In this document: positions 22,213 through 39,288 of the stretch, piece after piece
Numbering within the stretch: position 1 is the stretch's first letter
How the letters are laid out: each line of letters begins with the position of its first letter
NCBI GenBank assembly: GCA_023397655.1
Contig: JAEWTW010000026.1
Coordinates: 182,463 to 246,462, forward strand
Source: Bacillota bacterium
GTDB taxonomy: Bacteria; Bacillota; Clostridia; Christensenellales; SZUA-584
DNA: 64,000 bases
Direction of reading: 5' to 3'
The notes under the pieces: generated by a model
The model's input: the letters and a program-made list of their open reading frames with translations, nothing else
The model's database searches: none
Told to the model about the DNA's origin: nothing
Program-made: the position numbers and the translations under genes

Positions 22213-23430
22213 TTATTCAATCATACACGCTGAGCCATTATATTTTCGGAACTCAATACCTATACCGATATCCGTATGGTATCCCGGCTCGTCCGCGTAG
22301 TTTCCGTTCCACGCGATCTCATCAAGAGTAGGCGTATCATATGTTTGACGACGCTGTTCAATCAGTCTTAATGCTTCGCGGCCCATAACCGTGAGCGCGA
22401 ACCTGTCCTCCTCAAAAATATCCATTAACGACTCGGCGGCGGCTAAGCGAATTCCATAATTTTCATTGCTCAGCCTGCCATACTCGAATACCGCCTTCTG
22501 GTTGCATTCAGGCAAACCTTCATAAGCGGCAAGACGCACCTCGATACTGCAATCGTGAACAGCGGTATCACGCATCCACTCCATCTTATTCGGGAAATCA
22601 GCCTTTACCAATCTTTTTGCCGCCTCAGGGCGGATATACCAATCGGTTGTGTTTTGGACCAGATCCATCAGTAGATCTGAACGGGTGATTTGGTTTAAGA
22701 GGTTCAAGGCATCAAAGATGATATGTCCATTACAGAGCCGAATATACGCAGCCTCTTCATTTCGCCCCAGCCGTTTAAAAAGAACTTCCTTTTGGTCAAT
22801 CGTCAGTTTCTTATCCTGCAGTTTCGCTTCCAGTACGGCATGATTGCTGCAATGCGATACCGCGCAATGCCATAACCCGTTATTCTCGGCAGTATCCTTT
22901 ACAAATCGCTCGATCGTCTGCTGGTCATCCAGTTCGATCGCAGCATTCAGCCTATTCTCCGGTCTCGCATCCTCGCCGCACACGGCGCGCCTTAGCAAAT
23001 CGTCGGTGAGTTTATTAAAAGCAAGCGCACCTGCCTTCTCCCATTTAGCAGTCTTGGCCACTTGGGTCAGCAACGTTTCGTCAGTCATTGTTTCCACCGC
23101 CGCAGTGTAAAGATCCATCTCCTTGATCGCCAAGCGGCAAAGAAGCTGCTGATTCACCGATCTTTTAATCGCAGCCTGGCGCGTCCGCGCAAGATAGTTT
23201 CCTTCCGCGATACTGTCGATGACCGCCGGGTCGGATATCTGCATTAGCGCTGCGCTTTGGACAGGCGGCCAGCGAGCGTCTCGTACCAGATCAAGCAGCG
23301 CTGCCTGATCTTCGCGCAGCCGCTCTGCACCCAGCTCCGCAAGCTTGCCATCGTATGAATTCAACAGCGTTTTTTTGATCCAGCGCAGATTATTCGTGTG
23401 CAGCATCCTTCGGAATACCCAGGATTCCAT
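22213..23430 (-). CDS. HEAT-like alpha-solenoid paralogue (divergent N-terminus), HTD tail
   Basis: Start moved to MESW (AAGGAGGA upstream). Repeats of the type D..VR/IR..AA..L. Tail EPGYHTDIGIGIEF. Confidence 0.6.
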   Translation of the reverse strand: MESWVFRRMLHTNNLRWIKKTLLNSYDGKLAELGAERLREDQAALLDLVRDARWPPVQSAALMQISDPAVIDSIAEGNYLARTRQAAIKRSVNQQLLCRLAIKEMDLYTAAVETMTDETLLTQVAKTAKWEKAGALAFNKLTDDLLRRAVCGEDARPENRLNAAIELDDQQTIERFVKDTAENNGLWHCAVSHCSNHAVLEAKLQDKKLTIDQKEVLFKRLGRNEEAAYIRLCNGHIIFDALNLLNQITRSDLLMDLVQNTTDWYIRPEAAKRLVKADFPNKMEWMRDTAVHDCSIEVRLAAYEGLPECNQKAVFEYGRLSNENYGIRLAAAESLMDIFEEDRFALTVMGREALRLIEQRRQTYDTPTLDEIAWNGNYADEPGYHTDIGIGIEFRKYNGSACMIE

Positions 23431-23455
23431 TGTCGTCTCCTCCTTAAACATTCAC

Positions 23456-25576
23456 TTAGTGCTCAAAGTCGAACACCGTTTCCACCGTCACATCGCATCT
23501 TTCCGAAGCGCAGCCCGGATCAAAATCATGGTGCTTTAAGAGTGTGCGGCTGCCCAACTGCTTCAGCGTATTATGGCAATCTTGCGACTTTCCGTAGGCA
23601 TAGCAAAGGAAATCCCTCGCTTTTCTAAAGTCCCTCAATTCACTGCAATTTAATACCTTGTCGATCTGTTGCTTTATATACTCCATGCCGCCGTATTCAA
23701 TATAAACGTCGTCCATGTCTTTGCCTGTCAGTTTCGTAATCACCGTGGCATACCGGGGCACTTTATCCGCATCGCCGCTGCGCACCCCTGGTACAGCTGC
23801 TGTGATGATCGCTTCCCGATCTGCCAGAAAAACGTCGTTTGAGAGCCTCGCCAATATCGTTTCCATAGAAACGCGCCCATCGCGTACCAACGCAAGCAGC
23901 GGCGCCCATCGCCTCAAACGGCCGACAGCCGCTGTGCGGATATCCGACTCATCATCTAATATAAGCGATTCAAGAAAGTCCTGATCGTCAATGCGCGCCA
24001 CCGCTGCAACCCGAACACGCAGTGACGAATCGTGCAAGGCTACTTCTTTTAGGTCGCCCTCGTCAAGTGCTACCAGGGCCGCGATGCGCAGATTCTCCAG
24101 TTCCTTGGCGGCGGCCTCATGGACGTCGCTTCTGGCGTCTGTTTGTTGTATGATCCGCTCCAGCGCCGCCGCGTCAGCGATCCGTTCTGCCGCGGCTACG
24201 GCGAAGCGGCTGCCGCCCAGCGCGATCCTGAGCAGGATGGCGGTATCCGTGATATAGTTCAGGACATCGGCGCTGATGTATGTCTCCAGTCCGTCCGCCA
24301 GTCCCATTGCCTGATAGATGATGTCCTGGTTGCGTATCTTTGGCAATGCAGCGGCCACCAGTTCCCTGCCGTCCGCCGTCGGCGTTTGCTTTGTATGCTC
24401 CCAAATAACCTGCCCCAGCCGTTCATCTGAGGTCAAACGGCTGACCGCAGCCATACGTATGGACTGACGATAGCGGTGTCTGTCGCACGCCAGCTCTGCG
24501 AGCAACGGCTCGCTGGTCAGACGCAGCACCGTTTTTTCGTCAAGCTCGCTCATATGGCGCCGCGCATACAGGTTGAGGTCGGACGGGGCGGCGAGCATCG
24601 ATATCGCTTTTTGCCGGGCTTTATAGTCCCGGGATTCGATCGCCACCTCCAGAAGCTGATCCTGAGATAACGCAGTCAGCGGGATATTTGCCGGCGTCTT
24701 TGCTTTCTTCCCACCTTTTCTCTCAATGAGTGCGGGGCGAATCGCCTTTTGCAACAGCGCTTCCGTTACATCGTAAGGATGGGCGCTAATAAACTCTATT
24801 ATGTCTGCACGTTCTGTAAGTCTGCCTGCCGCTGCCTGTCTGATGGTAGCGGAATCGTTATGCAACGCTATACTTAAAAGCACCTTCTTTTCATCAATCC
24901 TGTCGAGCGCCATCATCCTCGCTCTAACTGCTTTTGCTGCACTCACCGCTTCGAGAACAGCGTCCTCGCTTCGCAGCCCCTTCACCAACGGCGCAACCGC
25001 ATCGCTTAGCGTAACTCCCATATCATCAAGCATTTTCAGCGTATTCAGTATCATTTTATCCGAAAATCGCCAAAGCATCGCGGAAACTTCTGGAGCGGAG
25101 CGCGAGAATATCCCCACACATTGCAGCAATACGATCGCCAGAAAATCTTCATCCTTAGCACAGCGTTTCAGGTACTCGTTCCGGGCTTTTTGTTCAAGAG
25201 TTGCCAGCATCTTTGCGAACGCTGCGTGGTCTTCCGTCACATCAAGCGCGGCGGAAAACAACGCAGCCACGCGCGCCGCATCTCCCTGAGACGCTTCATA
25301 TTCCAGCCGCTGCAAGATAGCCTTGAATTCCTGTGGATAATCCGCGATGCAAGAAAGCGCTTTTCCTGCCACACCTGCGCTGATTCGCGGTTCATCGAGA
25401 GCCAGGCGTTCCAGCAACAGCTCGTCTTTGATGCGAGATACCGCGAAAAACGCCACCGATTCCTCACGCGCGCCTTTAGCCGCACGCAGCAGCGCACTGT
25501 CGGAATCCAATGCAGCCACCGCTGCCAGTGCTCTGTTCGTATCTTTATCCTGCCATGCAGGTGACAATAGTCCCAT
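23456..25576 (-). CDS. HEAT-like alpha-solenoid paralogue, 706 aa
   Basis: N-terminus MGLLSPAWQDKD behind AGGAG. Many A..RL.D...L..IA repeats. Tail KHHDFDPGCASERCDVTVETVFDFEH. Confidence 0.7.
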   Translation of the reverse strand: MGLLSPAWQDKDTNRALAAVAALDSDSALLRAAKGAREESVAFFAVSRIKDELLLERLALDEPRISAGVAGKALSCIADYPQEFKAILQRLEYEASQGDAARVAALFSAALDVTEDHAAFAKMLATLEQKARNEYLKRCAKDEDFLAIVLLQCVGIFSRSAPEVSAMLWRFSDKMILNTLKMLDDMGVTLSDAVAPLVKGLRSEDAVLEAVSAAKAVRARMMALDRIDEKKVLLSIALHNDSATIRQAAAGRLTERADIIEFISAHPYDVTEALLQKAIRPALIERKGGKKAKTPANIPLTALSQDQLLEVAIESRDYKARQKAISMLAAPSDLNLYARRHMSELDEKTVLRLTSEPLLAELACDRHRYRQSIRMAAVSRLTSDERLGQVIWEHTKQTPTADGRELVAAALPKIRNQDIIYQAMGLADGLETYISADVLNYITDTAILLRIALGGSRFAVAAAERIADAAALERIIQQTDARSDVHEAAAKELENLRIAALVALDEGDLKEVALHDSSLRVRVAAVARIDDQDFLESLILDDESDIRTAAVGRLRRWAPLLALVRDGRVSMETILARLSNDVFLADREAIITAAVPGVRSGDADKVPRYATVITKLTGKDMDDVYIEYGGMEYIKQQIDKVLNCSELRDFRKARDFLCYAYGKSQDCHNTLKQLGSRTLLKHHDFDPGCASERCDVTVETVFDFEH

Positions 25577-25651
25577 GAATCTACACTCCTATATACGTCT
25601 GCTACAGCCGCTCTAAATCGAAATAAGACCCATAATCCGCGTGTCTTACCA

Positions 25652-25831
25652 TTACGGTAACCATGACCAGCATAAATTCACTGCTGATCCGCTCAACCGC
25701 CTTGCACACCAGTTGATATTGTTGATTTTGCAGGCAAGCCGCACCAAGAGTTCATCATCTGTGCATACGTGCCTGATGGCCTTTTTGGCCCGAGCAATAT
25801 TCTTACTCATCCACGGTATAAATAGTCCCAA
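25652..25831 (-). CDS. 59-aa mini-paralogue: N-terminal motif plus one repeat (possibly a remnant)
   Basis: TTG start 7 nt after GGGAGG gives MGLFIPWMSKNIARAKKAI... The upstream DNA resembles that of the 27046 start. Confidence 0.4.
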   Translation of the reverse strand: MGLFIPWMSKNIARAKKAIRHVCTDDELLVRLACKINNINWCARRLSGSAVNLCWSWLP

Positions 25832-25933
25832 ATTAATACCTCCCATTTTGATGCAGAGCATCGGCCTTTCTAGCAAAAAACTAGATTTACAGATCAATCG
25901 TTGTTGGTAGTCGCTACCCAAGAATATTACAGA

Positions 25934-27046
25934 TCATACGGGCAGGTCAAAGTGCACCTCCGCTTTATCTTCGTGTGGGGCACAACGATCTTCTCTATAG
26001 TCGTAATGCTCGTGATATGTACGTCGAGGGATTTTCAAAATCGCTTCACGCACCGCATCGTCCTTGGTTTCGCGATACATTTCCAGCAAGGCTTTCCGCG
26101 CAAAAGGCGCAACACGTCGGCTTTTTTCCATTATACGCAACAACGCTTCCACCGATGCTTGGGTTCGGATGTCTTTGAGCCGATCACATACTTCCCGATA
26201 TTGATCAAAATCTTTGCGATCTATCAGCTTCTCCAGTGCCGGAACAACGCGCGGATCGTCAAGCTCCATCAGATAATACGCATTATCGTTGCGTAGACAT
26301 TTGCTTATTAAAGCTGCAAGCGGCTGGGAATAGCGTGAAGAATCACGCTTCATGAGTTCAACTGCCACAAGGCAGCGCACATGCTTCAAGTTATCGGTGC
26401 ATAGCGCAAAGGACAGTAGCGAAGCATTGGATAATCGCGTCATTGCCAATTCAGCAATTCTTGCACGGCACCCCTCGTCTGAATCTTCCAAAAGATTTTT
26501 TTCGAGCAGGGCTAGATCGTCAATCTTATCGAAAATGTCCTTATTCCAATAGGGGTCTCGACGAAAACAGAAATACAATGTGTTTGGATCGGTAGTGATT
26601 TTTGCAAGGTGTTGGGCGGTGTTCCTGCGGACCTGGTGATCTTTTTCAGACATGATCAGTTCTTTTAGCAGTTCCACGTTCATAATTTTTTTCGAGGCAT
26701 TCATTCGAGCGAAGAAACTTGTTGCTTCTGCCGCTATCTTGAACAGCATATTATCGTCGTAGATTTCCTCCATTGCTTTTCTTGTGGCTTGATTCTCCTT
26801 AATACGATAAATTTTTGAATAATCGCATTTTATAATTGCCTCGGTTCGTACATAAACCGAGCTATCCGTTGCAGCGATTTTCGCGATTACTTCTTGATCC
26901 GTCAGCTTTTTTACAGCGAAGGCGCGCGTTCTTTCAAGTGGTGCTTTGAGCGCTGCTTCAGCAATCTTTCTCTGGTCGTTCAGATTTTCGATGGCATTTT
27001 CAGCTCGAGCTCTGTCCGTGCTCATCCATGGTGTAAATAGTCCCAT
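25934..27046 (-). CDS. HEAT-like alpha-solenoid paralogue, 370 aa
   Basis: Start at MGLFTPWMSTDRARAENAI (AGGAGG upstream). Tail TYHEHYDYREDRCAPHEDKAEVHFDLPV. Confidence 0.7.
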   Translation of the reverse strand: MGLFTPWMSTDRARAENAIENLNDQRKIAEAALKAPLERTRAFAVKKLTDQEVIAKIAATDSSVYVRTEAIIKCDYSKIYRIKENQATRKAMEEIYDDNMLFKIAAEATSFFARMNASKKIMNVELLKELIMSEKDHQVRRNTAQHLAKITTDPNTLYFCFRRDPYWNKDIFDKIDDLALLEKNLLEDSDEGCRARIAELAMTRLSNASLLSFALCTDNLKHVRCLVAVELMKRDSSRYSQPLAALISKCLRNDNAYYLMELDDPRVVPALEKLIDRKDFDQYREVCDRLKDIRTQASVEALLRIMEKSRRVAPFARKALLEMYRETKDDAVREAILKIPRRTYHEHYDYREDRCAPHEDKAEVHFDLPV

Positions 27047-27089: not shown

Positions 27090-28598
27090 CTAGTTCACAG
27101 ACAGCGCATACAATTCCTCTACACTCATGCCGAATCGCTCCTGAACGCTCTCTTTGAAAATATTCATTGATACGTTCATAAAATCATCACCCGTCGCATT
27201 AAAGGCTTCGTTAAGCGCCGAGCGTAAGGGTTCAATACTTTGCGGGTTATATTCAAATTTATTCGTGGCAGGATAATAGTCAAATCTTGCCTCGGTGCCG
27301 TCTTTTTCCAAAGAAATGAAATAAACATTCTTATCTGCGAAATATAAAATCAGCATCTGATAGCCCTTCACATCGGGATCAACAAAAGACATGCTCCAGT
27401 CAAGCCTATTCTCGACGGCGACATTATTATCCCATTCCGGTTTATGAATAGAAATTTCCATGCCGTTTTCTTGGTAAGTATAAGTTCCCTTATAATCAAG
27501 AAATGCAAATCCAAGTGTTTCATACGGGGATTGCAGCACAATATTTTCATCAAAGGGCATGCTATACAGTATATCGATGGGAAGTCCTAAAGCCTCCTGA
27601 ATTATATTGTCAAAGAAGACAAAGGGGGTAAGCAGTACATCCTTGTCGTTCACATCGTTAAACGCCTCCCGTACAATTGCCTCCATGCTTTCACGGTCAC
27701 AGTTGAAGCTGTTTGTGGTGACATTGTAAACATAGGTATAATTTTTCTGAGTGTTTGGATTAAACATCCATACAACATAGGCGTTATGCACCGGATAGAA
27801 ACCGATAGCATTCTTATAGCCACTCTTAGCCCCGGTAACCACTCGAATGCAGTTTTGCCAATCTTGCTGCGGCGGATCACCCCACTCGACATGATTGATG
27901 CGTATGTCGTATTTATCCGTTTGATACAACGCCAGTTTGTCGTCATCGTTGAAGTTAAAGCCAAGCTCGGCAAGGGTAAAAGCCACATCAAAGTCGGCTT
28001 GTTCGAGGTTTGCGCGCATATCCGCAAGCGGAAAGTAGTTCCCAATCTGGCTACCCTCAAGGTACAGACATTTTAGGTTGGTGAGAGCTAAAAGCGGTGT
28101 TGGGTCTGCGATTGTGGAATGATCCAGCATCAAGACACTCAGGTTGGTCAGTCTGGCAAGCGGAGTATAGTCTTCTGCCGTGCAACCGGAGAGTATCAAT
28201 GCTTTCAAGTTGGTCAGAGCTGACAGAGGTGCAATATCGGTGATTGCGTTGCCGGATAAATCAAGGCTCTCGAGGCTTGTAAAGTTCTCCAATCCGGCGA
28301 TACTGCTAATCGGTGCTTTTTCCGATATGTATTTCTGCCAATCCGCAAAAGCGAGGTTCAAGCTTGTCACAGCTTTCGCTTCCGCAGCCGTAATATCACC
28401 GTTGGGCTTGCCCATAGCACCACGCACTATCACCTCAAGCGTTGGGTCGGCAAAGGTCACAACGCTAGTCGTCGCAGTTTCTGTCTGCGTTGGCGTTGGT
28501 AACGGTGTTGGTAATGGTGTTGCCGCAGTCGGTGTGCCACATGCCACCAGTGAAGTGAGTAGCAGCAGAGCGAACAATGCGGACAGTACCTTTTTCAT
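27090..28598 (-). CDS. lipoprotein with leucine-rich repeats (internalin-like LRR)
   Basis: Start moved to MKKVLSALF (GGAGGA upstream). Lipobox LTSLVAC. TP-rich linker. LRRs such as LESLDLSGNAITDIAPLSALTNLKALIL. Confidence 0.75.
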   Translation of the reverse strand: MKKVLSALFALLLLTSLVACGTPTAATPLPTPLPTPTQTETATTSVVTFADPTLEVIVRGAMGKPNGDITAAEAKAVTSLNLAFADWQKYISEKAPISSIAGLENFTSLESLDLSGNAITDIAPLSALTNLKALILSGCTAEDYTPLARLTNLSVLMLDHSTIADPTPLLALTNLKCLYLEGSQIGNYFPLADMRANLEQADFDVAFTLAELGFNFNDDDKLALYQTDKYDIRINHVEWGDPPQQDWQNCIRVVTGAKSGYKNAIGFYPVHNAYVVWMFNPNTQKNYTYVYNVTTNSFNCDRESMEAIVREAFNDVNDKDVLLTPFVFFDNIIQEALGLPIDILYSMPFDENIVLQSPYETLGFAFLDYKGTYTYQENGMEISIHKPEWDNNVAVENRLDWSMSFVDPDVKGYQMLILYFADKNVYFISLEKDGTEARFDYYPATNKFEYNPQSIEPLRSALNEAFNATGDDFMNVSMNIFKESVQERFGMSVEELYALSVN

Positions 28599-28624
28599 TT
28601 GGTGAATCCTCCTTTTTTTATCAA

Positions 28625-29812
28625 TTAGTTGTTGATAAAGCTCCAATATTCCGAGAAGTTTTCCTCACTTAGAAGAATCCTTGATCCGTAGATCTGCTTG
28701 CCCTTTGCTGCATCGAGCATCTCTTTGCGCACGCTCTCGCCGACAGTAGTGGCATAGTCAAACAATCTTTCGGAGAAAATGCTCTCTCCCGTTGTAAGGT
28801 TCAACAATTCGGCATCCAGCGAGGCGTTGTATTGCGGAATGGTCGAATCATCATCACCGAAATGGAACGTCCCGATTTTGTTTTCATAGCTGTAATGCAA
28901 CAGAAGCGCATAGGTGGCTTTGTTGGGATCATCGGTTAAGATCAGTCCGCCGAACAAAAGATTGCCTGAGGTTTCTATCATGTCCTGCGTGCTGATTGGC
29001 TTATGTCGGGCGGAGGCACTGTTGTACCCGCCTTCGGATTCCCTTTTTGTTACGAGATCGATCACCTTATCCGCACAGACGATGTAGTATTTGGGAATGG
29101 GAGAGGACGGCGTAAAGGCGCGGATGTCCGAAACCCCATAGGCGCTTTGAAGGGCTTGTTCATCCCAATTACGAAGCAGCGTCTCATCAAAAATGGTTTC
29201 AGCGGGGTCTCTTAGTGCGGCTAGCTCATCTTCTGCTTGAGACGAATAGTAGGTGCTGGGATCCTGTATGGATAATTTGAAACCGAAAACGCCACACCCG
29301 ATTGTTGTTTGCGTGCCATCTGTTCCGCTGTACAAATAGTTGTACACCAATAAGAACGGAGCAAACTCTTCGTTAAAGCACAGGTTTGAAATCGTGTTCG
29401 CGCCCACAGAAAATTCATCAGTATATTTGCCATATTGAACAGGGTACGGCCCCGCGAAGTTCTCTGTGGCCGAGGCAACTTTTATTTGGGTCTTTGAATC
29501 CCCACTGCCCACTGATGCATTTAAGTTTGAGATCTTAATCGTTACGTCATGGATGTACGTTTTGTCGGCAGAGAGAATAAAGCTGCATTTGATATCGCCA
29601 ACACCGGAATTCTTGCTATGCCCTGCGAAAAGCAATTCGCCTTCTTTGGGCTTAGCCACAGGTTCCACAGTGGGGGCTGACGGTGGTTCAACCGTGGGCG
29701 CTGCGGACGATAGTACTTCCGGTGATGCCGTTACTGCGGGAACGGGTGCACTGCAGGCTGCCATCGAAACAATTAGCAACAACGCAAGAAATGTGAACAG
29801 TGTCTTTTTCAT
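28625..29812 (-). CDS. lipoprotein of unknown function
   Basis: Signal peptide and lipobox IVSMAAC. No other motif recognised. Confidence 0.6.
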   Translation of the reverse strand: MKKTLFTFLALLLIVSMAACSAPVPAVTASPEVLSSAAPTVEPPSAPTVEPVAKPKEGELLFAGHSKNSGVGDIKCSFILSADKTYIHDVTIKISNLNASVGSGDSKTQIKVASATENFAGPYPVQYGKYTDEFSVGANTISNLCFNEEFAPFLLVYNYLYSGTDGTQTTIGCGVFGFKLSIQDPSTYYSSQAEDELAALRDPAETIFDETLLRNWDEQALQSAYGVSDIRAFTPSSPIPKYYIVCADKVIDLVTKRESEGGYNSASARHKPISTQDMIETSGNLLFGGLILTDDPNKATYALLLHYSYENKIGTFHFGDDDSTIPQYNASLDAELLNLTTGESIFSERLFDYATTVGESVRKEMLDAAKGKQIYGSRILLSEENFSEYWSFINN

Positions 29813-29868
29813 AATAGAAACCTCATTTTCTTATTAGCCTCACCTTGTGAAAGATATCTTGTCATGCG

Positions 29869-30987: not shown

Positions 30988-32244
30988 TCATAGTGGCTCA
31001 ATAAGCCCGTCCTTGACCACATAATCACTATGGCCGGCACAATTGCTGCTGATGGGTCCGTCGTTGTGGACATCGCGGAATCGCTTTTTCTGGCGGGCAG
31101 CGTGCTGTGCGAACGGCTCCGGCAGCTCCGCCTCGGAATAGAGCCAGCGCAACTGTACGGTGGCAAAATGATCACCTCCCGACACCCTTTTTTCCAACGC
31201 CTCGATTAGCGCAAATGAACAGCGCTTTTGGAAAAGCCCGCGCAGCTCCCCACTGTCACCGGATTGCTGCACATACCGAATAGCATCCTCCTCGCCACCA
31301 CACCAGGCAAGCCGTTGCTTAAAAATATCGCTGTGCTGCGGATATTCCGCCTCGCGTCTCCGCCACCAGCAAGCCGACGCGTATTCAACTGGTATCCATG
31401 TGGCGATATGTTCACGTTTTAGACTATCTTTTGGCAAATTTTCAAACAGCGTCATAAGCTCATCGGCCTTCATTTTTTTCATAGCGGCAGTTTCGGCATC
31501 TATCACTGTCGTTTTGACAAAGACGTCTTGTGCGTCGCCAGGATCAATACGTTTGGCGGCTCTGACACTTATATAGCTATCCATAAGGGCAATCTGTTTC
31601 AAAAGTGCTGGGTTTTTGATACATTCATCCTCAATGCTCTTGATACACAGCTTTTGCATGCTCTTTTCGTCAGCGAATGAGAGGATCAACTTGCATAGCG
31701 CGTCCTCATCCGTTATCTGTTCACCGCAAAGAGCACGCAGCTCGCCGTTTTCCGAAGCATCCATCGCAATTTGCGCAAACAGCCTTTGGTCAGCCTCGCC
31801 CCAGTCGGATTGTTTAAGCTCCCCCAGGCGCTCCATCGCGGCACAACGCACATCTGCAGAAAGCGCGCTATCCGCCACAACATGGGTAAGCAGTCGGACG
31901 TCGCTCAGGTGTCTCACAGCCGCGCGTTTCCCGGAGTCGCTGGGGTGCTGTCGCACAAGCGCATACAGCAAGCTTGGGTCGGTCAGCCGTTTCAATACTA
32001 TCCAGCCGAAGGCTTCCAATGGCAGTTCTTGCGTCAGTGCCATAAAGAACTGTGCAAGAAATTGCTGGTCATTAATACGTTCAATGCAAAGCTGACGCAA
32101 ATGAACCTGATCGTCGGGGAGCAGGCCGGAATGGCCTATATCCGAAAGCAGTATTTTAATCAGCTTTTTCTCGTCGCGTATTCTGCCGATAGCCTTTTTT
32201 TGCTTAGCCCAGTTTGTCGTCATATAAGGCTTAAAAATACCCAC
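30988..32244 (-). CDS. HEAT-like alpha-solenoid paralogue, 418 aa (GTG start)
   Basis: AAGGAGGA, 4 nt spacer, then GTG gives MGIFKPYMTTNWAKQKKAI. Lies 16 nt downstream of the radical-SAM stop. Tail FRDVHNDGPISSNCAGHSDYVVKDG. Confidence 0.7.
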   Translation of the reverse strand: MGIFKPYMTTNWAKQKKAIGRIRDEKKLIKILLSDIGHSGLLPDDQVHLRQLCIERINDQQFLAQFFMALTQELPLEAFGWIVLKRLTDPSLLYALVRQHPSDSGKRAAVRHLSDVRLLTHVVADSALSADVRCAAMERLGELKQSDWGEADQRLFAQIAMDASENGELRALCGEQITDEDALCKLILSFADEKSMQKLCIKSIEDECIKNPALLKQIALMDSYISVRAAKRIDPGDAQDVFVKTTVIDAETAAMKKMKADELMTLFENLPKDSLKREHIATWIPVEYASACWWRRREAEYPQHSDIFKQRLAWCGGEEDAIRYVQQSGDSGELRGLFQKRCSFALIEALEKRVSGGDHFATVQLRWLYSEAELPEPFAQHAARQKKRFRDVHNDGPISSNCAGHSDYVVKDGLIEPL

Positions 32245-32260: not shown

Positions 32261-34456
32261 TTACGTGAGCATGCCTGCCAAATGTATAAACGCGGCTTTC
32301 CGAGCCGTGCAGTCAAAGTCTCCGCTGTCAATGTTCTTATCTTTTGACCATGCCTTACACATCCCGCCGCAAAGGTATCGAACTTCGCATTCTTTGCATT
32401 TTTCATTCATGTCCACATCGTGCCGGGTTAGTTCACGGAAAGTCACTCCCTCTACAACATCATCCAACCTATCTTTGAGCAAGTTGCCCAGCTTCTTATC
32501 CGCACCGCACCACGCATAGCACGGATAAGCGCCGCCGTCCGGCTCCACGTAAAGGTTCTGCCCAAAGCCGCAGGAGAAGCGCGGCCTGAAAGGCCGTTTC
32601 TTCTCATTCTCGTCTATGCAGAGAAAATCCGAGTCCTTCGGTGCGCTTTCCGCCCTACCTAACGGTAGAATTGGTCTGAATCGCACATTTTCGATCCCAA
32701 GACGTTCGCACAATTCATCAACCGATTTCCCTTCTTGTCCTTCGCGCTGCGTTTTAGTCAGCGTCGCGCAGACGCCTACCCTGCGGATGAAGCCCAATTC
32801 CTTAATTCGTTCAAGGTTATCTATCGTCCGTGCGTAACGCCCTGCGCCGCGCTGCGCATCGTGGCTCGCTTCGTCGCCGTCTACGCTGACCACAATTTCA
32901 GGAAAGGCCTCGCACACAGCTTTCAGGCGCTCATCGGAAATCGGAAAGCCAAGCGACGTGCGCAGTATCAGCCGCATACCTTTCAGCGAAATACGCCTGA
33001 TTCCCGCGAGCATTGCGTCGATTTCGGTATGCACAAGCGGCTCTCCGCCCGTCACCACCACCGCGCGAAAAAACGACTTCTGCGCCGCTTTGATAATATT
33101 AAGCATCGCGTTTGCAGGCATTTCGTTCATTTCACTCTCGCCACCCCGCGCATAGCAATGCCCACAGCGCAGCGGGCAATCGAACGTGACATGCAGATAC
33201 AGCTTGTTGAGTTCATTGACTCGGTTTTTCTTGTAACGCTCAAGAGCAGTACTCGCGCCATACGGATAACGGCCCCACTTGGACGCTTGTCTCATACGCT
33301 GTTCGTTGATCTCCAGATCGTAGGGGTGCGGCTGGTCCCCTGCCATCTGCAGCAGCGGAGCATTCTCAGGAGGTATGCGTTTCGTCATAATGTAACCCAT
33401 CTCAAGCGCCATATCGCGCGATATCTCGTCAAACAACGCGCGGTATGCCTTGCAATAAGGGTCTTTCGTGGTGTCTGAAGCAAACATGTTGTAAAGGCAT
33501 CCGCCGCTGCAATACGGGAAATGAACGCACGTCCCGCACTCAGTATGCGCGCCTTCCTGCTTTTCCAGTAATTTGCGGTACGCTGCGCTTTCAATAATCT
33601 GCGCTTCGGTCAGGTCGTCCATCACGTTTCCCAGCGCAAATTCCTCATGCCCGCAGAAGCGCTGGCATGAATAAACGCTGCCGTCCGGAGCAATCGCGGC
33701 GAAACGCCCGAGGCACGGAAAAAAAGTGCACGTATGCCCTTCGCCATCAAAGCAGCCTTTCGCCATGGAATCCAGCGTAAATACCCTTGTCTGCCGCATA
33801 TTTTTCTTGTATGCAGCCAGGGTATCCAGCATAATTCTGGCCATGTCGTGAGCGGTCACAGTATACGCGTCAGGCTCGCAGCCCAGTGCGCGTACCGCAC
33901 CGTGCAAAGCATATGGAATTCCGCTGCGCAGACTGCCCGCATAATGCCGGAATACGCGCTCAGCCTCGCCCGCGGATTCATGGGTAAACGTGCAAATACG
34001 GCTGGTCTCCACGCCATATTGCAGCAGCACCGACCGACCGCTCTCATTGGCAGCATAGTACCCTTTCCCGCGCTGCGCATCGCACATCGCTTCATCGCCA
34101 TCGATGCTGGTTCCTACGGCAATGCGGTAATCCCGGATGAGCTGCGCCATATGTTCGTCCATCGCGATGAGGTTACTCTGTATGGAAAGGCGTAACCTGC
34201 GTCCAAAGCGTTGCTGCAGTTTTGGCAGTATGGTTTCGAAAAATCCCGCACCAGCCAGCAAAGGTTCGCCGCCGTGAAATGTAACGCGTACGCTTCCCTC
34301 TTCCGGCGCGATCCGTTCCATAAAATCAAGCACTTTATCTGCCACCTCGCGCGTCATGGTTTCACCCCGGTTGGGGCCGAAGCAATAGGTACACGAGGCC
34401 TGGCAGGCCGCTGTGGGCACGAGCATGAAATTGCCGGGGCGAAAAGACGGTTCCAT
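32261..34456 (-). CDS. fused double radical-SAM/SPASM-domain enzyme
   Basis: Two CX3CX2C sites (CQASCTYC and CPLRCGHC). Each is followed by Cys-rich SPASM-like segments (CTFFPC...CQRFC...CGTCVHFPYCSGGC and CGFG...CYAWC...CKECEVRYLCGGMC). Start is ATG 34456 or GTG 34459, behind GGAGG. Confidence 0.85.
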   Translation of the reverse strand: MEPSFRPGNFMLVPTAACQASCTYCFGPNRGETMTREVADKVLDFMERIAPEEGSVRVTFHGGEPLLAGAGFFETILPKLQQRFGRRLRLSIQSNLIAMDEHMAQLIRDYRIAVGTSIDGDEAMCDAQRGKGYYAANESGRSVLLQYGVETSRICTFTHESAGEAERVFRHYAGSLRSGIPYALHGAVRALGCEPDAYTVTAHDMARIMLDTLAAYKKNMRQTRVFTLDSMAKGCFDGEGHTCTFFPCLGRFAAIAPDGSVYSCQRFCGHEEFALGNVMDDLTEAQIIESAAYRKLLEKQEGAHTECGTCVHFPYCSGGCLYNMFASDTTKDPYCKAYRALFDEISRDMALEMGYIMTKRIPPENAPLLQMAGDQPHPYDLEINEQRMRQASKWGRYPYGASTALERYKKNRVNELNKLYLHVTFDCPLRCGHCYARGGESEMNEMPANAMLNIIKAAQKSFFRAVVVTGGEPLVHTEIDAMLAGIRRISLKGMRLILRTSLGFPISDERLKAVCEAFPEIVVSVDGDEASHDAQRGAGRYARTIDNLERIKELGFIRRVGVCATLTKTQREGQEGKSVDELCERLGIENVRFRPILPLGRAESAPKDSDFLCIDENEKKRPFRPRFSCGFGQNLYVEPDGGAYPCYAWCGADKKLGNLLKDRLDDVVEGVTFRELTRHDVDMNEKCKECEVRYLCGGMCKAWSKDKNIDSGDFDCTARKAAFIHLAGMLT

Positions 34457-34472: not shown

Positions 34473-35522
34473 TCAATCAGGTTGAAACAGTATCGGTTGT
34501 TCAATAGCATCTGTATGCCCCATATCTATGTGATCTCCGAGGTCATAAAACTCATGATGCACATCGCTGTGACGCTCGGGAAGAATCATGCGTCCGCGGA
34601 ACAAATGAATTTGTTCCACAAATCTCCCGTTCTTATAGATGAACTTGAGCAAAGCGCTTGCAATCATTGAGTGTTTTTCAAAGCATACATGGACGAGCGC
34701 CTGAAGCAAGGCGTCGTCTGTATTATCTATCCAGTCGGTGCGGCCTTCTTCGCTCAGCTGTATCAGTCGTTCACCCGCCTTTTCTGCATAACCATCTCCG
34801 CCGCTCAGAAAAATATTTAAAATTCCCATTGGTTTTAGTCGTGCCAATGCGGCGTCCGAACGATGCTTTTTCGCGGCTTTAAGGAAAACCTGCTGATTGT
34901 CGGGCATCCTCTCCAGCGCCCATTCACGAGTGTCCGGATATGTAGAATTCGAGGCTATATAGGCGATATCCGCCTTTTCAACTATTTTTGAGAACGCCGC
35001 TTTGCGCACATCTGAGTCCTGATCATTCAGGCATATTTGCAGCAATACGTCTCGGCATACATTTCCAGATTTCACTGCTTTACGCTTTTCATAAGCTGAA
35101 TGTGCATACTGCGCAATAAGCGTATCAGCTTCTGGATCATTGCCCAGTCGTCTGTGCGCAACCGCTCGCACTCCCCAGTTGGGATCGGTTTTGGTAAGTT
35201 CTTGGAGAACCGCCGCGTTTTCAATGCGTTCGGCAGCTCTCTGGCGAAAGCTGTCAGTTTCGCAATGCCGCCCGATCTGACTCAAGAGTCCCTGGTCGGT
35301 GATTCGATCAAGCAAGTCGGCAGCGTAGACGTTTGGTTTCATAACAATTTGATATAGCAGCGTCTGATCGGTAAGCCGTTCTGCCGCGACTTTTCTTACT
35401 TTATAGTGGAAGCTTCCATCCGAGATAATCTCAAACAACGTTTGTTGATCCCTGATACGTTCGACGGCTTTTGCCGCTTTAACATGATCCCGATGTTTCC
35501 ATCCGGGTGTGAACAGGCCCAT
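34473..35522 (-). CDS. HEAT-like alpha-solenoid paralogue, 349 aa, HxD-richest tail
   Basis: Start at MGLFTPGWKHRD (GGGAGGA upstream). Its stop lies 1 nt before the radical-SAM gene's GGAGG RBS (start 14-17 nt further downstream). Tail ERHSDVHHEFYDLGDHIDMGHTDAIEQPILFQPD. Confidence 0.7.
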   Translation of the reverse strand: MGLFTPGWKHRDHVKAAKAVERIRDQQTLFEIISDGSFHYKVRKVAAERLTDQTLLYQIVMKPNVYAADLLDRITDQGLLSQIGRHCETDSFRQRAAERIENAAVLQELTKTDPNWGVRAVAHRRLGNDPEADTLIAQYAHSAYEKRKAVKSGNVCRDVLLQICLNDQDSDVRKAAFSKIVEKADIAYIASNSTYPDTREWALERMPDNQQVFLKAAKKHRSDAALARLKPMGILNIFLSGGDGYAEKAGERLIQLSEEGRTDWIDNTDDALLQALVHVCFEKHSMIASALLKFIYKNGRFVEQIHLFRGRMILPERHSDVHHEFYDLGDHIDMGHTDAIEQPILFQPD

Positions 35523-35535
35523 CGTTGAATCCTCC

Positions 35536-38187
35536 CTACTCGTCCAAATTGAAATATGTATACCCCTCATCATTGTGGCACCACTCGTCGCGGTATGCTT
35601 TGCCCTGAACATCCGTGTGGGATATGACTTTCTTTTCGAGTCCTTTTATAGCATTCGTAAACCGTCCCATTGAATAAACCTGTTTGAGCGCCACTGCCAT
35701 TGGCCGGTAATCAAACCGCTCATCCTTTTCGTTTTCAGCAATGACAGATATCATCTCCCTAACCGTTGTTTCGCTCAGTTGCCGCGCCCAACCCACGTCC
35801 AATTCATTTAAACGTGCACAAATCTCCGGTGTAAAGGTAAACGGTATGTTTGATATTACGATTTGGAAAAGCGCATTTGCATCTGTGATATGCTGCAGCG
35901 CACGCTTGCGAGTTTGCAGTTCCTTTGCATTGCGGGCAATAGTCAGAAGTTTATCTTTGTCGGATATCCTCAATAAATCCATATCAACCCTCTCGATTTT
36001 CAGCGCGATGTCGCAAAGCATATTCTCATTCGTGATACGGTGTATGGCTTCGATCCGCATATCCAGCGGCATACTCACGTCGAGCGCAATGGCTTTGAGT
36101 TTTTTTGCATCTTTTATATCCTCAAACTCTGCCATTTGTTTTTTGAGGTTTACATCTCCATATGAAACGTTGTTATCACCCTTTTCTCTCAGTGTTGTTT
36201 CTGGCATCGGCAGTAAATCCATGTAGACATAATCGCCGTCCTGATGGCACCATTTGTCGCGGTATTCCTTGCCGGTAAGGTCAAGGTGCGCCACGGCTTT
36301 TCCATGCAGCTTTGCAATCGCCACTTTTGATCGTCCCTGCATATAGACGTTTTTCAATACGGCGGCAAAGTGCCGGTAATCAAATTTCTCATCCTTTTCG
36401 TTGCCCGCAATGACGTCTATCAGCGCCTTGACTGCCGCGTCGTCAAGCTGTTGCACCCAGTCCGCATCCAGCTCATTAAGGCGCTCGCAAATCTCAGGCA
36501 TAAAACTTTTTGGCACGTTGGCGATTACTGCTTTATATAGCGCCTTCGCGTCATGAACGCGCTGCAGCGCCTGTTTGCGTATCCGCCGATCCTTTGCGTC
36601 TCTGGCAATTCGCAACAGCATATCCGGATCTTTGATCGTGTGCAGGTTGAAATCCTGCTTCTCCGGCATCTCGATTTTAAGCGCAACGTCAAGCAGCGTA
36701 TATTCGTCCGTGATGCGGCGTGCTGCCGCCGCGCGTATTCTCGGCGCGACATCGCTATCTAGCGCAATTTCTTTTAAAGCTGTCTGGCTTGTGACCAACT
36801 GCAGATCTTGCAGTGCATCGTCTGCATCCCTGTTATTTCGCAGCCTGAATATCGTCGGATCGATCTCCGGCTTTATATCGTCAAGTTCCAGATAGGTAAA
36901 GCCTCCGTCTTCGTGGCAGCCCTTATCACGGTTCACCTTGCCGCTGGAATCGCTGTGAGATACGGCAGTCCCTTTAAGCGCCGCGATACTCTGCGTCGCA
37001 CGTCCTTTCCCGTATATGCGCCTCAGTGCGGTCGCAATATGTGTATAATCGAACCGCTCTTCCGCCGTATTCTCCGACAATATTTGCGCCAAGCCCTCCA
37101 CGGTGCGGTTACTGGCTTTTTGCACCCATTCTTTATCGATTTCGTCGAGTCGCTCGAAAAATTTTCGGTCTCTGTAGTGCTTCGGGTTGTTGTCGAACAG
37201 TGTAAGCATCGTATCCAGCCTACCGATACGCAGCAGTGCCTTCTCGCTGATTTCGCTATCCTTTGCGCCATTGTGAATACGCAAAAGCGCCTCATCCCCT
37301 GACACATACTTCAACGCCTCCTGGCACAAAAAGCCCATCTGGTATTCGGACGGAAACAGTTCTGGGCCATCGTGCATGGCAATGCGCTCAAATATCGTGA
37401 AATCCCGGATACGACTTTTTGCCTGCACACGCACCTCCTCTGGCCCGCACAGCGCCATCAACGCCAGCCGTCGGTCGTCTCCGATGTCTTCGGGGCTTAC
37501 CAGCTTCGCGCATTCACACAGCACGTATTGATTCAACGTTTGATCCATGATTACCTGCGCAAGTGCCGGGTCGCCCGCTTTCTTCACTGCTCCGGTGCAA
37601 ATGTGTGATTTCTGCGCCGTGTGTGCCAGCTTAACCGCGCGGTCGGTATTTTTCATATTGACAATTGCGGCTAAGCGAATCTCTTCATTCTCCGCCATGT
37701 CGAACATGTCCTGCAGGTATTGCTGATCGCCAATCCTCTTCAGCGCAATAATTCGCACATCCCGATCGGGGTCTTTCGCCGCCAGCCATTTGAGCACCTC
37801 CTGGTCCGCCAAATGTGCTGCCGCCTTTCGGCGCAGCCCGTAGCCCCCTGCGTACCGAGCCACGGCAGCCAGACAGCTTTGCAGTTTCGCGTCGTTTTCG
37901 ACTGACTCCTTATCCAACTTTTCAAGGCCGTCCCACACGCGACACAGCGGCTCCACCGCCATCAGCCGCCGAAGCGCGGCTTCACGAGGGGCGCTTAATT
38001 TAGGCACATTGATAACATCGAGGATCAACCCGCAGTCCCAAAGCCTTTTTACCGCTTCCTCTTGGATATAGTGATTGGGTGCATTCAACGCCGCGTCGCG
38101 AAGTATTGCTTCCTTTTGAACTTTGTTCAGCGCCACCAATGCATTTTTAAAGTTCTCCGACATCCATCCCGGTTTGAAAAGACCCAT
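35536..38187 (-). CDS. HEAT-like alpha-solenoid paralogue, 883 aa, with a triplicated C-terminal module
   Basis: MGLFKPGWMSENF behind AGGAGGA. Three modules each end in H-x-D ... CH-x-D ... Y.Y..L. Confidence 0.75.
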   Translation of the reverse strand: MGLFKPGWMSENFKNALVALNKVQKEAILRDAALNAPNHYIQEEAVKRLWDCGLILDVINVPKLSAPREAALRRLMAVEPLCRVWDGLEKLDKESVENDAKLQSCLAAVARYAGGYGLRRKAAAHLADQEVLKWLAAKDPDRDVRIIALKRIGDQQYLQDMFDMAENEEIRLAAIVNMKNTDRAVKLAHTAQKSHICTGAVKKAGDPALAQVIMDQTLNQYVLCECAKLVSPEDIGDDRRLALMALCGPEEVRVQAKSRIRDFTIFERIAMHDGPELFPSEYQMGFLCQEALKYVSGDEALLRIHNGAKDSEISEKALLRIGRLDTMLTLFDNNPKHYRDRKFFERLDEIDKEWVQKASNRTVEGLAQILSENTAEERFDYTHIATALRRIYGKGRATQSIAALKGTAVSHSDSSGKVNRDKGCHEDGGFTYLELDDIKPEIDPTIFRLRNNRDADDALQDLQLVTSQTALKEIALDSDVAPRIRAAAARRITDEYTLLDVALKIEMPEKQDFNLHTIKDPDMLLRIARDAKDRRIRKQALQRVHDAKALYKAVIANVPKSFMPEICERLNELDADWVQQLDDAAVKALIDVIAGNEKDEKFDYRHFAAVLKNVYMQGRSKVAIAKLHGKAVAHLDLTGKEYRDKWCHQDGDYVYMDLLPMPETTLREKGDNNVSYGDVNLKKQMAEFEDIKDAKKLKAIALDVSMPLDMRIEAIHRITNENMLCDIALKIERVDMDLLRISDKDKLLTIARNAKELQTRKRALQHITDANALFQIVISNIPFTFTPEICARLNELDVGWARQLSETTVREMISVIAENEKDERFDYRPMAVALKQVYSMGRFTNAIKGLEKKVISHTDVQGKAYRDEWCHNDEGYTYFNLDE
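35539..36867 (-). repeat. two full ~220-aa tandem protein modules (aa 441-660 and 661-883); a half module precedes them (aa ~330-440)
   Basis: Aligned by eye: LKEIALDSDVAPRIRAAAARRITDEYTLLDVALKIE vs LKAIALDVSMPLDMRIEAIHRITNENMLCDIALKIE, and PEICERLNELDADWVQQL vs PEICARLNELDVGWARQL. Confidence 0.8.
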
Positions 38188-38241
38188 TGTATCCTCCTAG
38201 CTGGTTTCCGCCGGTTTTTCCTTCACCGCACGGAACTTTTC

Positions 38242-39288
38242 CTACCACCCCGCTGTTTGTTCATTTTTGTCCTCAGCCCAGCGTAAAGTAGGTATAACCT
38301 TCATCGTTATGGCTCGATTCACATGGCCACTGTGAGTAATCGGTTTGTTCACTAAGCCTTTAATCTCCGTTTTAGATTGTTCTCTTTTATATATCCGTTG
38401 TGAAAACCCGTATTCTGCCGCCTTTACGCTAATGTTTTCCCACTCGTGTTTTACGGGAAAACGTCGGCTATGTTTGCACGTTGCGATGCGCTCGAACACA
38501 GTAAAATCCTGAATCCTGCCCGCTGCATCTGCACGTATCTCCTCAGGCCCGCACAGTACCAGCAAAGCCAGCCGCCAGTCATCCGTGATATCGGCCGCGC
38601 TCACCATTCTTGCGCACTCTTCGCATACGGCCAGGTGCAGCGTCTGCCCCATAATCTCTGCAGCGAGCGCCTTATCACCTGTTTTGCGGAGCGCTTTGAC
38701 GCATATATAGGGTTCTTCGGTATTACGCGCCATCCATGCCGCGGACGCGGTATTTTGCATATAGACAGCAATGCACAAGCGCAAGTCCTCGGAATCCGCC
38801 GCATCGAACACAGCCTGTAGGTAATCCTGGTCTTCTATCCGAATCAGCGCATTAACGCGCACGGCTTCGTCTTTATCATTCTCGTATATCCATTTCAGCA
38901 GCGCCTGATCCGTCACATAACCTGCTGCTTAGCGGCGCAGTATCTCGGTTCCATACCGCGATACACAGGCGAGGCAGTCTTGAAGCAGAGTATTATGTAT
39001 GGCTGCTCTCCCGTTGGTCATGCAGATATCACACCATGCTCTCGCAAACGGCTCAATCCCCAGCAGCCGGACAACCGCCCGCTCACCAATGCCTTCCGGC
39101 ACCATGTCAGCAGCCAGCCTCATCAGCATAGTAGAATCATTCATCCGATCAACGGCCATGCACCGGATACGCATATCAACCGCTTTGCGCGCCGCGCGGC
39201 AGAGCACGACCTGACGTTTTACCCGCTGAAGCGCTAACTCCGCTTTCCTGTAGTTGGTGGACATCCACGCCGGTTTAAATAGGCCCAT
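38242..39288 (-). pseudogene. disrupted paralogue of the 883-aa gene
   Basis: MGLFKPAWMSTNY N-terminus. In-frame TAA at 38929-38931 where the paralogue has Lys (RRK vs RR*). A frameshift near the 3' end: the shifted frame reads HNDEGYTYFTLG* and ends at 38273. A large internal deletion relative to 35536..38187. Confidence 0.75.

Follow-up and report, generated by a model that had tools for sequence, protein, structure and literature searches.

We report on a 64,000-nucleotide (nt) stretch of DNA from a Bacillota bacterium (contig JAEWTW010000026.1), referred to here as the window, in which a block of minus-strand genes encodes a series of related alpha-solenoid proteins together with a fused double radical SAM/SPASM enzyme (Table 1). 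An earlier interpretation of the same DNA letters, made without database searches (the sequence-only reading), had drawn attention to a peptide of the type M-G-L-F-x-P-x-W with which seven of these genes begin. Our survey of the block bears out this N-terminal feature and adds a second one that the sequence-only reading missed, namely conserved His-x-Asp tails at the C-termini of the solenoid proteins, which are consistently encoded beside the enzyme. Labels of the form L001 or P0011 denote fetched relatives of the locus, from genomes or metagenomes.

Table 1. Genes and gene remnants of the block, given as positions in the window (ORF, open reading frame; aa, amino acids).
Feature	Position	Strand	Length (aa)	N-terminus	Character and C-terminal end
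orf150	21424..21876	-			3' remnant of a family gene, missed by the sequence-only reading; complete tail ..KHID....CFENHVD..VIFHL
Zinc-ribbon ORF	21961..22194	-	77		Stand-alone; C..C...C..CG twice; called as a gene in L001 and L002
A	22213..23430	-	405	No peptide	Family member; one-unit tail ..GYHTDIGIGIEF...
B	23456..25576	-	706	MGLLSPAWQ	Tail ..KHHDF.PGCASERCD..VFDFEH.
C	25652..25831	-	59	LGLFIPWMS (TTG start)	Decayed 5' copy of a D-like gene
D	25934..27046	-	370	MGLFTPWMS	Tail 25937-26020, YHEHYD..RCAPHED..VHFDLPV
E	30988..32244	-	418	VGIFKPYMT (GTG start)	Directly downstream of the radical SAM gene; tail ..VHND...CAGHSD..IEPL
Fused double radical SAM/SPASM enzyme	32261..34456	-	731		Two complete CX3CX2C + SPASM modules; ORF could extend to 34510
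F	34473..35522	-	349	MGLFTPGWK	Directly upstream of the radical SAM gene; tail 34476-34598, RHSD..DHID.GHTD..LFQPD
G	35536..38187	-	883	MGLFKPGWMS	C-terminal module three times internally; tails 36877-36960, 36211-36294, 35539-35622
H2	38242..38916	-	224		Continuation of the decayed H gene; corrupted tail ..ITHSGHVNRA.. in place of ..HxD..CHxD
H1	38929..39288	-	119	MGLFKPAWMS	N-terminal piece of a decayed G/H-type paralogue; 37% identity to G residues 1-120
Zinc-finger + helical protein	39300..39944	-	214		66-68% identity to the same-position genes of L012 and L015, the two closest genomes
I	40081..40473	-	130	No peptide	2-3 family repeats; no tail; synteny kept in L012 and L015
XRE/HTH_31-type regulator	41338..41766	-			Head of the array; weak Pfam HTH_31 match (23.0 bits, cut-off 27)

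All seven of the proposed minus-strand starts are present, at 25576, 25831 (TTG), 27046, 32244 (GTG), 35522, 38187 and 39288, and the peptide encoded there, [MLV]-G-[LI]-[FL]-x-P-(x)-[WY], lies 5-9 nt 3' of a ribosome-binding site. The description of that site as GGAGG-like holds for six of the seven, which have a GGAGG or GGAG core at this distance, but not for 39288, which has AAGGA only. When the 64 kb are searched with a degenerate DNA pattern for [start]-G-[LI]-[FL]-x-P, these seven sites and no others match, all on the minus strand; shuffled sequence gives 0.17 +/- 0.40 matches and never reaches seven. Starts are shared by gene calls on three related metagenome contigs (products of 349, 418, 370 and 706 aa), the 418-aa call among them, made independently, being the same as that for E. 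Synonymous and third-codon positions vary freely among the seven 5' ends, which places selection on the peptide and rules out that the N-terminal conservation stems from repeated DNA or a recombination site. The gaps between genes measure 11 to 136 nt, in place of the 3-30 nt given previously, and a promoter and terminator scan of the array stayed at the level of shuffled sequence, and is hence uninformative on operon structure.

The assignment of these proteins to an alpha-solenoid fold is well supported by structure prediction, with the AlphaFold2 models of D and F (mean confidence, pLDDT, 82.6 and 84.4) forming regular stacks of helix pairs, with helices of about 10 residues; in F the pLDDT exceeds 90 for residues 11-240. 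Foldseek searches of the PDB with these models return only generic HEAT, ARM and alphaRep solenoids, the top TM-score being that of the alphaRep 4zv6 (TMt 0.50). The repeat period had been put at about 30 aa; the spacing of the L-T-D-Q..L anchor in relatives is predominantly 26 residues, and a hidden Markov model (HMM) of the repeat unit that assumed 31 aa failed where a 26-aa unit worked. Built solely from relatives outside the window, the 26-aa HMM matches G (8e-22), D (3e-18), F (4e-14), B (5e-11), H2 (9e-11), A (3e-9) and I (2e-7), so that A and I carry the repeats without the peptide, as the sequence-only reading had it. E, C and H1 give weak scores only, and the non-family genes of the block no match. 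The solenoid paralogy thus stands on the AlphaFold2 stacks, the Foldseek matches and the HMM matches together.

At Pfam gathering thresholds D passes HEAT_2 (35.0 bits, cut-off 27.7) and F passes HEAT (24.5, cut-off 23.5), with A just under the HEAT_2 cut-off at 26.0 bits; the Pfam scan gives nothing for B, C, E and H1, and unrelated sub-threshold matches only for G, H2 and I. The family shares with the PBS-lyase/HEAT_2 proteins (PF13646, PF03130, PF02985; alphaRep) the short two-helix repeats, the D..VR..A signature and the right-handed alpha-solenoid. It differs from them in its 26-aa period with an L-T-D-Q..L..IA signature, in the scores of most paralogues below Pfam thresholds, in the N-terminal peptide and specific C-termini (His-x-Asp tail or zinc ribbon), and in the absence of a lyase context. 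No signal peptide is seen by eye in the array proteins. The statement that no function has been described for the family agrees with our searches, which gave no Pfam or NCBIfam model beyond weak HEAT matches; in the literature, no paper was found on the peptide or the family, and searches that covered TIGR04083, SPASM with HEAT repeats, double radical SAM domains and the His-x-Asp motif yielded nothing about the system described here. In our reading, the array groups diverged paralogues from an uncharacterised, apparently cytoplasmic alpha-solenoid family with 26-residue helix-hairpin repeats of the type L-T-D-Q..L..IA....VR..A.

C-terminal tails and the adjacent enzyme

The C-terminal module common to A, B, D, E, F and orf150, and present three times in G, consists of a helical part (..L..hY..GR...I..L.G..h), a run of His-x-Asp (HxD) units and a short closing strand of hydrophobic character (V-x-F-x-L). 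The units often read [S/A]-H-x-D and then C-H-x-D. There are two or three units in D, E, F, orf150 and each module of G, and one in A and in B; the B type of tail is also seen in the homologues P0036 and P0040. Each module copy of G ends [SA]-H-x-D ... C-H-x-D, and an exhaustive profile search recovers three module stretches in the identical protein P0011. Across eight homologues of D (44-88% identity) R342, Y344, H345, H347, D349, H358, D360, V364, H365, F366, D367 and L368 are invariant, and most of the positions that do not vary in this group lie in the tail. The tails are predicted to be disordered, residues 343-370 of D lying at or below a pLDDT of about 50 and residues 309-349 of F below 50; in the D model two short strands flank the tail loop. 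A compilation of 78 non-identical tails, selected for at least two HxD units (most have 2-5), shows a cysteine 0-2 residues before an HxD unit in 50 and none near HxD in the other 28, the F type included, and a middle residue that is mostly T, S, N, E or D. Modules of the window type are rare, forming 33 clusters at 50% identity among 1.84 billion representative sequences, and most of these clusters start with the N-terminal peptide.

The enzyme encoded within the array matches the Pfam models Radical_SAM and SPASM twice each, and both of its cluster motifs and both sets of SPASM cysteines are invariant in a Parabacteroides homologue of 34-36% identity. Its start at 34456, supported by gene calls, lies 16 nt after the F stop codon, behind a spacer that carries GGAGG and leads to an ATG. 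The whole enzyme scores 332.3 bits against TIGR04083, a family of peptide-modifying radical SAM proteins with a cut-off of 300, and it passes only because the scores of its halves (N-half 276.2, C-half 62.5) add up. After TIGR04083 the N-half matches anSME, PapB, CbpB, DynA, AmcB, QhpD and HxsB, and its closest solved structure is anSME 4K37 (E = 1e-24); the C-half alone resembles StsB, PapB and the SCIFF maturase weakly. All of the named families have cut-offs well above the scores obtained: anSME (TIGR03942) 193.6 against 349.45 bits, PapB 190.2 against 340, QhpD 117.6 against 453, HxsB (TIGR03978) 139.8 against 370, and among the cyclophane synthases YhhB 111 against 445, FxsB 94 against 370, GrrM 90 against 310 and AmcB 110 against 425, with XyeB also far below. 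HxsC is absent among the matches at E <= 1e-15 for either half.

The nearest families of the enzyme (TIGR04083, anSME, PapB, QhpD, StsB, SCIFF and the cyclophane synthases) are thus all peptide or protein maturases, and its distant relatives have small-peptide neighbours; on these grounds of homology it is to be placed within the peptide- and protein-modifying SPASM radiation, in no named family. These distant relatives, in L081, L084 and L088, occur as two or three separate radical SAM genes beside small Cys-rich peptides with GG motifs (for example ..INGGTGDWCYSSSREKCCEKAGSCLGICADGSTGC), and look like classical clusters for ribosomally synthesised peptides that undergo post-translational modification (RiPPs). 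In the window only 16 nt separate the enzyme gene from its neighbour on either side, which leaves no space for a small precursor ORF to flank it.

The association with a double radical SAM gene that had been raised for the N-terminal peptide does exist, but it follows the C-terminal tail and not the peptide. Of the genome loci retrieved by way of the peptide, just three have a homologue of the enzyme: those from a member of the Christensenellaceae (L015), a member of the Clostridiales (L050) and a Parabacteroides isolate (L030), all of which encode complete HxD-tailed proteins. This corresponds to three of the four loci with tails and none of the 29 without, the latter judged within the fetched 8 kb (Fisher p = 7e-4); the remaining tail locus breaks off short of where the enzyme would be expected. 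In L030 the operon consists of two tail proteins and then a full-length fused enzyme of 34% identity.

A metagenome scan extended this to 24 loci with a fused full-length homologue of the enzyme, in 21 of which a same-strand upstream gene is on the contig. The last 50 aa of that upstream gene contain at least two HxD units in 16 of the 21 and at least one in 18, and BLAST identifies it as a family member in 15. The enzyme-adjacent tail carriers include proteins outside the family or without the peptide (434 aa in L056 and 246 aa in L061; A in the window also lacks the peptide), and the first two show that the link joins tail and enzyme. The succession of F and then the radical SAM gene is kept in L015, L050, L052-L055 and L103, and P0044, an F orthologue that was not found by way of the enzyme, is likewise followed by the radical SAM gene, with an overlapping start; in L053 and L054 the radical SAM gene has an orthologue of E on its downstream side. 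The form of the tail ending tracks the clade of the enzyme, ..V.F.L being found with enzymes of 48-85% identity and ..G-I-G-V-x-F-P-P-Y-P-F-x-D with those of 32-38%. The pairing spans Bacillota to Bacteroidota, in gut, termite and rumen anaerobes, and is reduced in L030, L058 and L059 to minimal operons of tail protein(s) and enzyme only. The linkage proposed for other neighbours does not extend beyond the window in this way: the RCC1-repeat gene has no homologue in any other locus examined, nor does that of a 395-aa lipoprotein, and leucine-rich repeat (LRR) genes recur sporadically, in three loci only.

Candidate maturation of the tails

Because the tails are consistently encoded beside the fused double radical SAM enzyme, they are its likely substrates. 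Conserved adjacency, the co-variation of tail and enzyme clade and the intact clusters all point to a relation of this kind, and we consider the HxD tails to be probably modified by the enzyme. Taken as a whole, the explanation that we favour, in which the array encodes capped solenoid paralogues whose tails are the probable substrates of the double enzyme, has in our estimation about an even chance of being right. One enzyme would then serve many substrate proteins, all of them paralogues. We speculate that hydrogen abstraction could take place at the beta-carbon of the Asp, and that a cross-link could then form to the His two residues upstream, in the manner of triceptides, or to a neighbouring Cys, in the manner of ranthipeptides and QhpD; each half of the enzyme might handle one kind of unit. 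This would yield a rigid C-terminal knob that may bind metal, the counterpart of the zinc ribbon in a sister subfamily. With the cysteine absent from F-type and some other tails, a thioether could not be the universal product.

A broader proposal, which we put forward tentatively and judge somewhat less likely to be true than false, is that this is an undescribed maturation system found across phyla, in which a two-headed enzyme modifies the HxD tails of many full-size solenoids to give a new cross-linked knob with a possible metal-binding or effector role, the array being a set of diversifying binding modules that share a matured end. To our knowledge, radical SAM/SPASM maturases are known mostly from short RiPP precursors, and few act on full-size proteins (anSME, QhpD and recently HxsB/C). 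The locus presents a compact pairing of a fused double maturase with soluble solenoids that bear conserved tails of 30-40 residues and a simple His-x-Asp code. If the tails are modified, they would constitute a new class of substrate, probably with new cross-link chemistry on His, Asp or Cys, and would give the first functional handle on a widespread, unannotated family of repeat proteins; if they are not, what remains is an ordinary capped HEAT-like family beside an orphan maturase.

Several points weigh against modification of the tails by the enzyme. Adjacency of genes is no proof of a substrate relation, and known substrates of radical SAM modification are mostly short peptides. The N-half of the enzyme alone stays under the TIGR04083 cut-off, and its first cluster motif, at residue 36 of the 749-aa ORF (18 of the 731-aa product), leaves no room for an N-terminal RiPP recognition element. 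On the side of the tails, Cys is missing from the F type and some others, and A and B have one HxD unit only. Five of the 21 upstream neighbours lack a clear tail, although errors in ORF calling may account for some of these where contigs are short or high in GC (L065, L069), and in L062 the tail protein lies downstream of the enzyme in place of upstream.

A tail of His, Asp and Cys could, moreover, bind metal without being modified. This would make the tail a variant of the zinc ribbon and the solenoids partners of the enzyme, which might, for example, present some other substrate to it as scaffolds or adaptors, or donate a metal or cluster. The composition of the tails fits such a site, with 2-4 His, 2-4 Asp and often one Cys before a strand, as do the two strands around the tail loop in the D model; 20 family members have a Cys-rich, zinc-ribbon-like end at the same position, and HEAT-type solenoids are typically interaction scaffolds. 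We nevertheless regard this reading as unlikely. The minimal operons of L030, L058 and L059 hold no other conserved candidate substrate, the type of tail co-varies with the clade of the enzyme, and the relatives of the enzyme are maturases that modify their substrates.

The short motifs repeated at the C-terminus, the several possible precursors for each enzyme and the SPASM maturase itself also recall RiPP biosynthesis, in which case the tails would be core peptides with a very large leader, cut off and exported after modification. Genes of the MacB type, encoding ATP-binding cassette (ABC) exporters, are found near the enzyme in two Gram-negative loci (L030:188-2141 and the P0045 contig, the latter with membrane-fusion, outer-membrane and TetR genes as well), which is either a hint of export or a coincidence. 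Pfam and NCBIfam scans find no peptidase or ABC genes in the window block, however, and most loci likewise lack a peptidase or exporter; the 78 compiled tails are not preceded by Gly-Gly or any other conserved motif for cleavage, and G carries the motif three times internally in a single 883-aa protein. A RiPP-like product is for these reasons very improbable.

If the tails are substrates of the enzyme, the system may work by analogy with HxsA/HxsBC, the triceptides or anSME, without belonging to any of them. The enzyme resembles anSME in its closest structure and second-best NCBIfam match, and anSME provides the example of a SPASM enzyme that acts on a full-size protein without a leader or recognition element; it differs in its much lower score against that family and in being duplicated and fused, and the tails lack C/S-x-P-x-R and belong to solenoids, not sulfatases. 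PapB, acting on ranthipeptides, and QhpD, acting on QhpC, form Cys-Asp thioethers and provide a precedent for abstraction at the Asp beta-carbon. Both halves of our enzyme match models of the PapB type, and the N-half that of QhpD, and many tails contain C-x-H-x-D (Cys-X3-Asp) or C-H-x-D; against this, all of the scores are below the cut-offs and the 28 of 78 tails without a nearby Cys include the F type encoded directly upstream of the enzyme.

Triceptide (three-residue cyclophane) synthases, HtkB, HaaB and YhhB among them, are SPASM enzymes, and HTK, HAA and HNR are His-x-x motifs that such synthases cross-link (PMC11499958). The likeness here is in the SPASM maturase, in repeated aromatic-X-X motifs near the C-terminus of the substrate and in the acceptance of His as the aromatic residue. 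Triceptide substrates are short leader-core peptides, whereas those proposed here are folded proteins of 246-883 aa; His at position 1 with Asp at position 3 is not among the cases HTK, HAA and HNR (PMC11499958), and the enzyme lies far under the cut-offs of YhhB, FxsB, GrrM, AmcB and XyeB.

The HXS anti-phage system offers the nearest parallel in the nature of the substrate, in that HxsB and HxsC mature HxsA, a 214-aa protein with five His-x-Ser repeats in which +8 Da is found on SHRSS and whose motif copies are individually essential (PMC13128918). Common to HXS (PMC13128918) and to the system proposed here would be two radical SAM modules that act together on a protein substrate with several three-residue His-x-[small polar/acidic] motifs. 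In the window the two modules are fused in one polypeptide, there are several candidate substrates per enzyme and no HxsD is recognised; the His-x-Asp units stand at the extreme C-terminus of solenoids of 250-880 aa that have neither signal peptide nor peptidoglycan-binding domain, and Pfam and NCBIfam scans of the array proteins give no match to HxsA or to such a domain. HXS is 99.7% confined to Pseudomonadota (PMC13128918), whereas the system of the window is found in Bacillota, Bacteroidota and termite or rumen anaerobes, and the HxsB and HxsC results for the enzyme set it apart in the same way. What appears from these comparisons to be new with respect to known SPASM maturases and motif-repeat substrates is the fused double-headed enzyme, the large solenoids as candidate substrates and the His-x-Asp tails.

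Distribution and role of the N-terminal peptide

The N-terminal peptide has a much wider distribution than the tails. A strict DNA pattern for MGLFKP[AG]W, scanned over 185,579 species genomes (GTDB contigs, one genome per species), gave 50 matches in 47 loci, of which about 37 are true family members, so that the peptide is enriched outside the locus of the window. Its carriers are for the most part members whose C-terminus is a zinc ribbon and which have no radical SAM gene in their vicinity. These family matches continue W-[MQ]-S-x-N-x-x-K-A-x-x-A-V-x-K-x-T-D-Q..L..IA and then further repeats. The family extends to at least six phyla (Bacillota, Actinomycetota, Chloroflexota, Spirochaetota, Bacteroidota and Deferribacterota), with members in Oscillospiraceae, Lachnospiraceae, Christensenellaceae, Coriobacteriia, Propionibacteriaceae, Anaerolineae, Spirochaetales, Bacteroidales and Deferribacteraceae. 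Variants of the peptide that were not selected by the pattern, such as MRLFQPEW, MELFKPAW and MSFKDLFKKPW, occur in neighbouring paralogues. The C-termini of 52 family proteins in the genome loci divide into 20 that are Cys-rich and zinc-ribbon-like, 9 with a His-x-Asp tail and 23 that are of other kinds or cut. No recurrent partner for the family at large emerged when 133 genes next to family members, from 33 genome loci, were assigned to Pfam families. A protein search with a profile of the seven N-termini, too low in power, gave one match among 431 candidates.

The first L-T-D-Q anchor lies at residue 22-23, an offset of 21-22 from Met1, in 18 of 20 trimmed N-termini, and when the sequences are aligned on this anchor, MGLFKPAW coincides with the ..L-A-x-I-A.. 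helix that the preceding unit has in the 26-aa repeat consensus. AlphaFold2 models residues 1-10 of D and F as a short helical turn before helix 1, at a pLDDT of 69-72. This fixed spacing, in register with the repeat, favours an N-terminal cap over a leader or docking element, and we consider from register and family-wide distribution that the M-G-L-F-x-P-x-W peptide is probably a capping half-repeat. It would replace the missing helix of the preceding unit and shield the first repeat, which would explain why it is common to all subfamilies whatever their C-terminus or neighbourhood. Two points tell against the cap: it draws on register and distribution, and a near-constant position right at Met1 would also suit a terminal recognition signal.

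The sequence-only reading had taken the peptide for a shared recognition, docking or leader element, which might be used by the double radical SAM enzyme or by other common machinery for export or proteolysis. The peptide is the most constant sequence feature of otherwise diverged paralogues, at their extreme N-terminus; most radical SAM-adjacent tail proteins carry it, in keeping with the number of family members among the upstream neighbours, and RiPP biosynthesis is known to include cases in which one maturase processes many precursors that share a conserved leader. It is, however, equally present in the zinc-ribbon and other subfamilies, in unrelated neighbourhoods that have neither a radical SAM gene nor a recurrent partner, while enzyme-adjacent tail proteins do without it (the 434-aa protein of L056, the 246-aa protein of L061, and A and orf150 in the window). 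Its spacing and register match those of the repeat itself, and it stands 300-880 residues away from the tail. A leader function is accordingly improbable, and the earlier proposal gives way to that of a solenoid N-cap.

A gene downstream of a fused radical SAM homologue (L064:2454-3678) encodes a protein that starts MGLFKPNVEKLKKKRDVKGL and continues as an ordinary-looking HEAT_2 protein. From this beginning, the GLFxP start may be older than the family of the window and common to other PBS/HEAT-type repeat proteins.

Decayed copies, neighbouring genes and mobility

Some copies in the array are remnants. The first 27 nt of C equal those of D at 23 positions, with the same ribosome-binding context, and the two products share 59% identity over 22 aa. 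H1 and H2 are two pieces of one gene, for which L015 and L012 have an intact orthologue of 474-486 aa; H2 shows 41% identity to residues 126-330 of G and 72-80% to those intact genes. The orf150 product is 45% identical to the C-terminal 150 aa of a 352-aa MGLFKPGWMS protein of L050, and the adjacent 77-aa ORF is similar, by eye only, to the C-terminal ribbon of the zinc-ribbon subfamily. At the other end of the array, the 214-aa zinc-finger and helical protein has no significant match to a Pfam or NCBIfam family. A 207-aa protein encoded at 40515-41138 (minus strand) is kept in L012 only and matches no family model. Homologues of the regulator at the head of the array occupy the same place in family arrays of L012, L014, L033, L044, L052 and L055-L057.

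The array is interrupted at 27090-30864 on the minus strand by three further genes, which encode an LRR lipoprotein, the 395-aa lipoprotein and an RCC1-repeat protein of 331 aa that has no signal peptide. They stand there only in this lineage, and are absent from the otherwise syntenic L052-L055.

The block, from about 21.4 to 41.8 kb, is GC-richer than its flanks (0.50-0.53 against 0.38-0.49) and is bracketed by large serine recombinase genes at 19467-21149, 45001-45879 and 45898-47559 (minus strand), of which the one encoding 292 aa has no resolvase domain; it is probably made up of one or two integrated mobile elements. In the strain of L001, whose shared parts are 92-99% identical, other cassettes lie between the recombinase and the 77-aa gene (L001:15203-19662, corresponding to 21300-21960 of the window). 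They encode a protein of 324 aa that begins MGLFKKVW, an LRR lipoprotein, a fragment of 173 aa and a family member of 242 aa that ends in an HxD tail, where the window has the orf150 remnant only. Since the block is mobile, variable between strains and decaying in places, an accessory, fast-turnover or conflict-related function is tentatively suggested.

In its strongest form this would make the array a set of cassettes of a conflict system, for defence or immunity, carried on a mobile island, with variable solenoid binders that share a constant, enzyme-matured end as in HXS. The bracketing recombinases and raised GC content, the cassettes that differ between strains of 92-99% identity and the decay of several copies would all fit, and HXS shows that repeat proteins matured by radical SAM enzymes can be defence effectors (PMC13128918). 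Such a role would be compatible with maturation of the tails by the enzyme, yet it seems rather improbable. A search of PADLOC-DB 2.0, a library that predates HXS, gave only pVip through generic radical SAM similarity (75 bits) and a weak HEAT-ARM match, with no defence system beyond these; the single match in a pattern scan of viral contigs is spurious, and thus provides no link to phage. Pfam and NCBIfam scans show no toxin or nuclease domains in the block genes scanned, family members elsewhere lie among housekeeping genes, and the array proteins lack the signal peptide of HxsA.

Beyond the regulator, the minus strand at 42560-44757 encodes a 148-aa helix-turn-helix (HTH) protein (44311-44757) and then a 583-aa Ser/Thr kinase with C-terminal LRRs (42560-44311). 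This HTH protein resembles that at the head of the array (41338-41766), and L056 and L057 have a similar HTH gene, together with a 594-aa gene, upstream of their radical SAM unit. Past the recombinase genes, at 47894-52014 on the same strand, the genes for a DUF2703 protein, a SAM-dependent methyltransferase, an ECF-type sigma factor and a hybrid-cluster (prismane) protein form an ordinary-looking flank of lower GC content.

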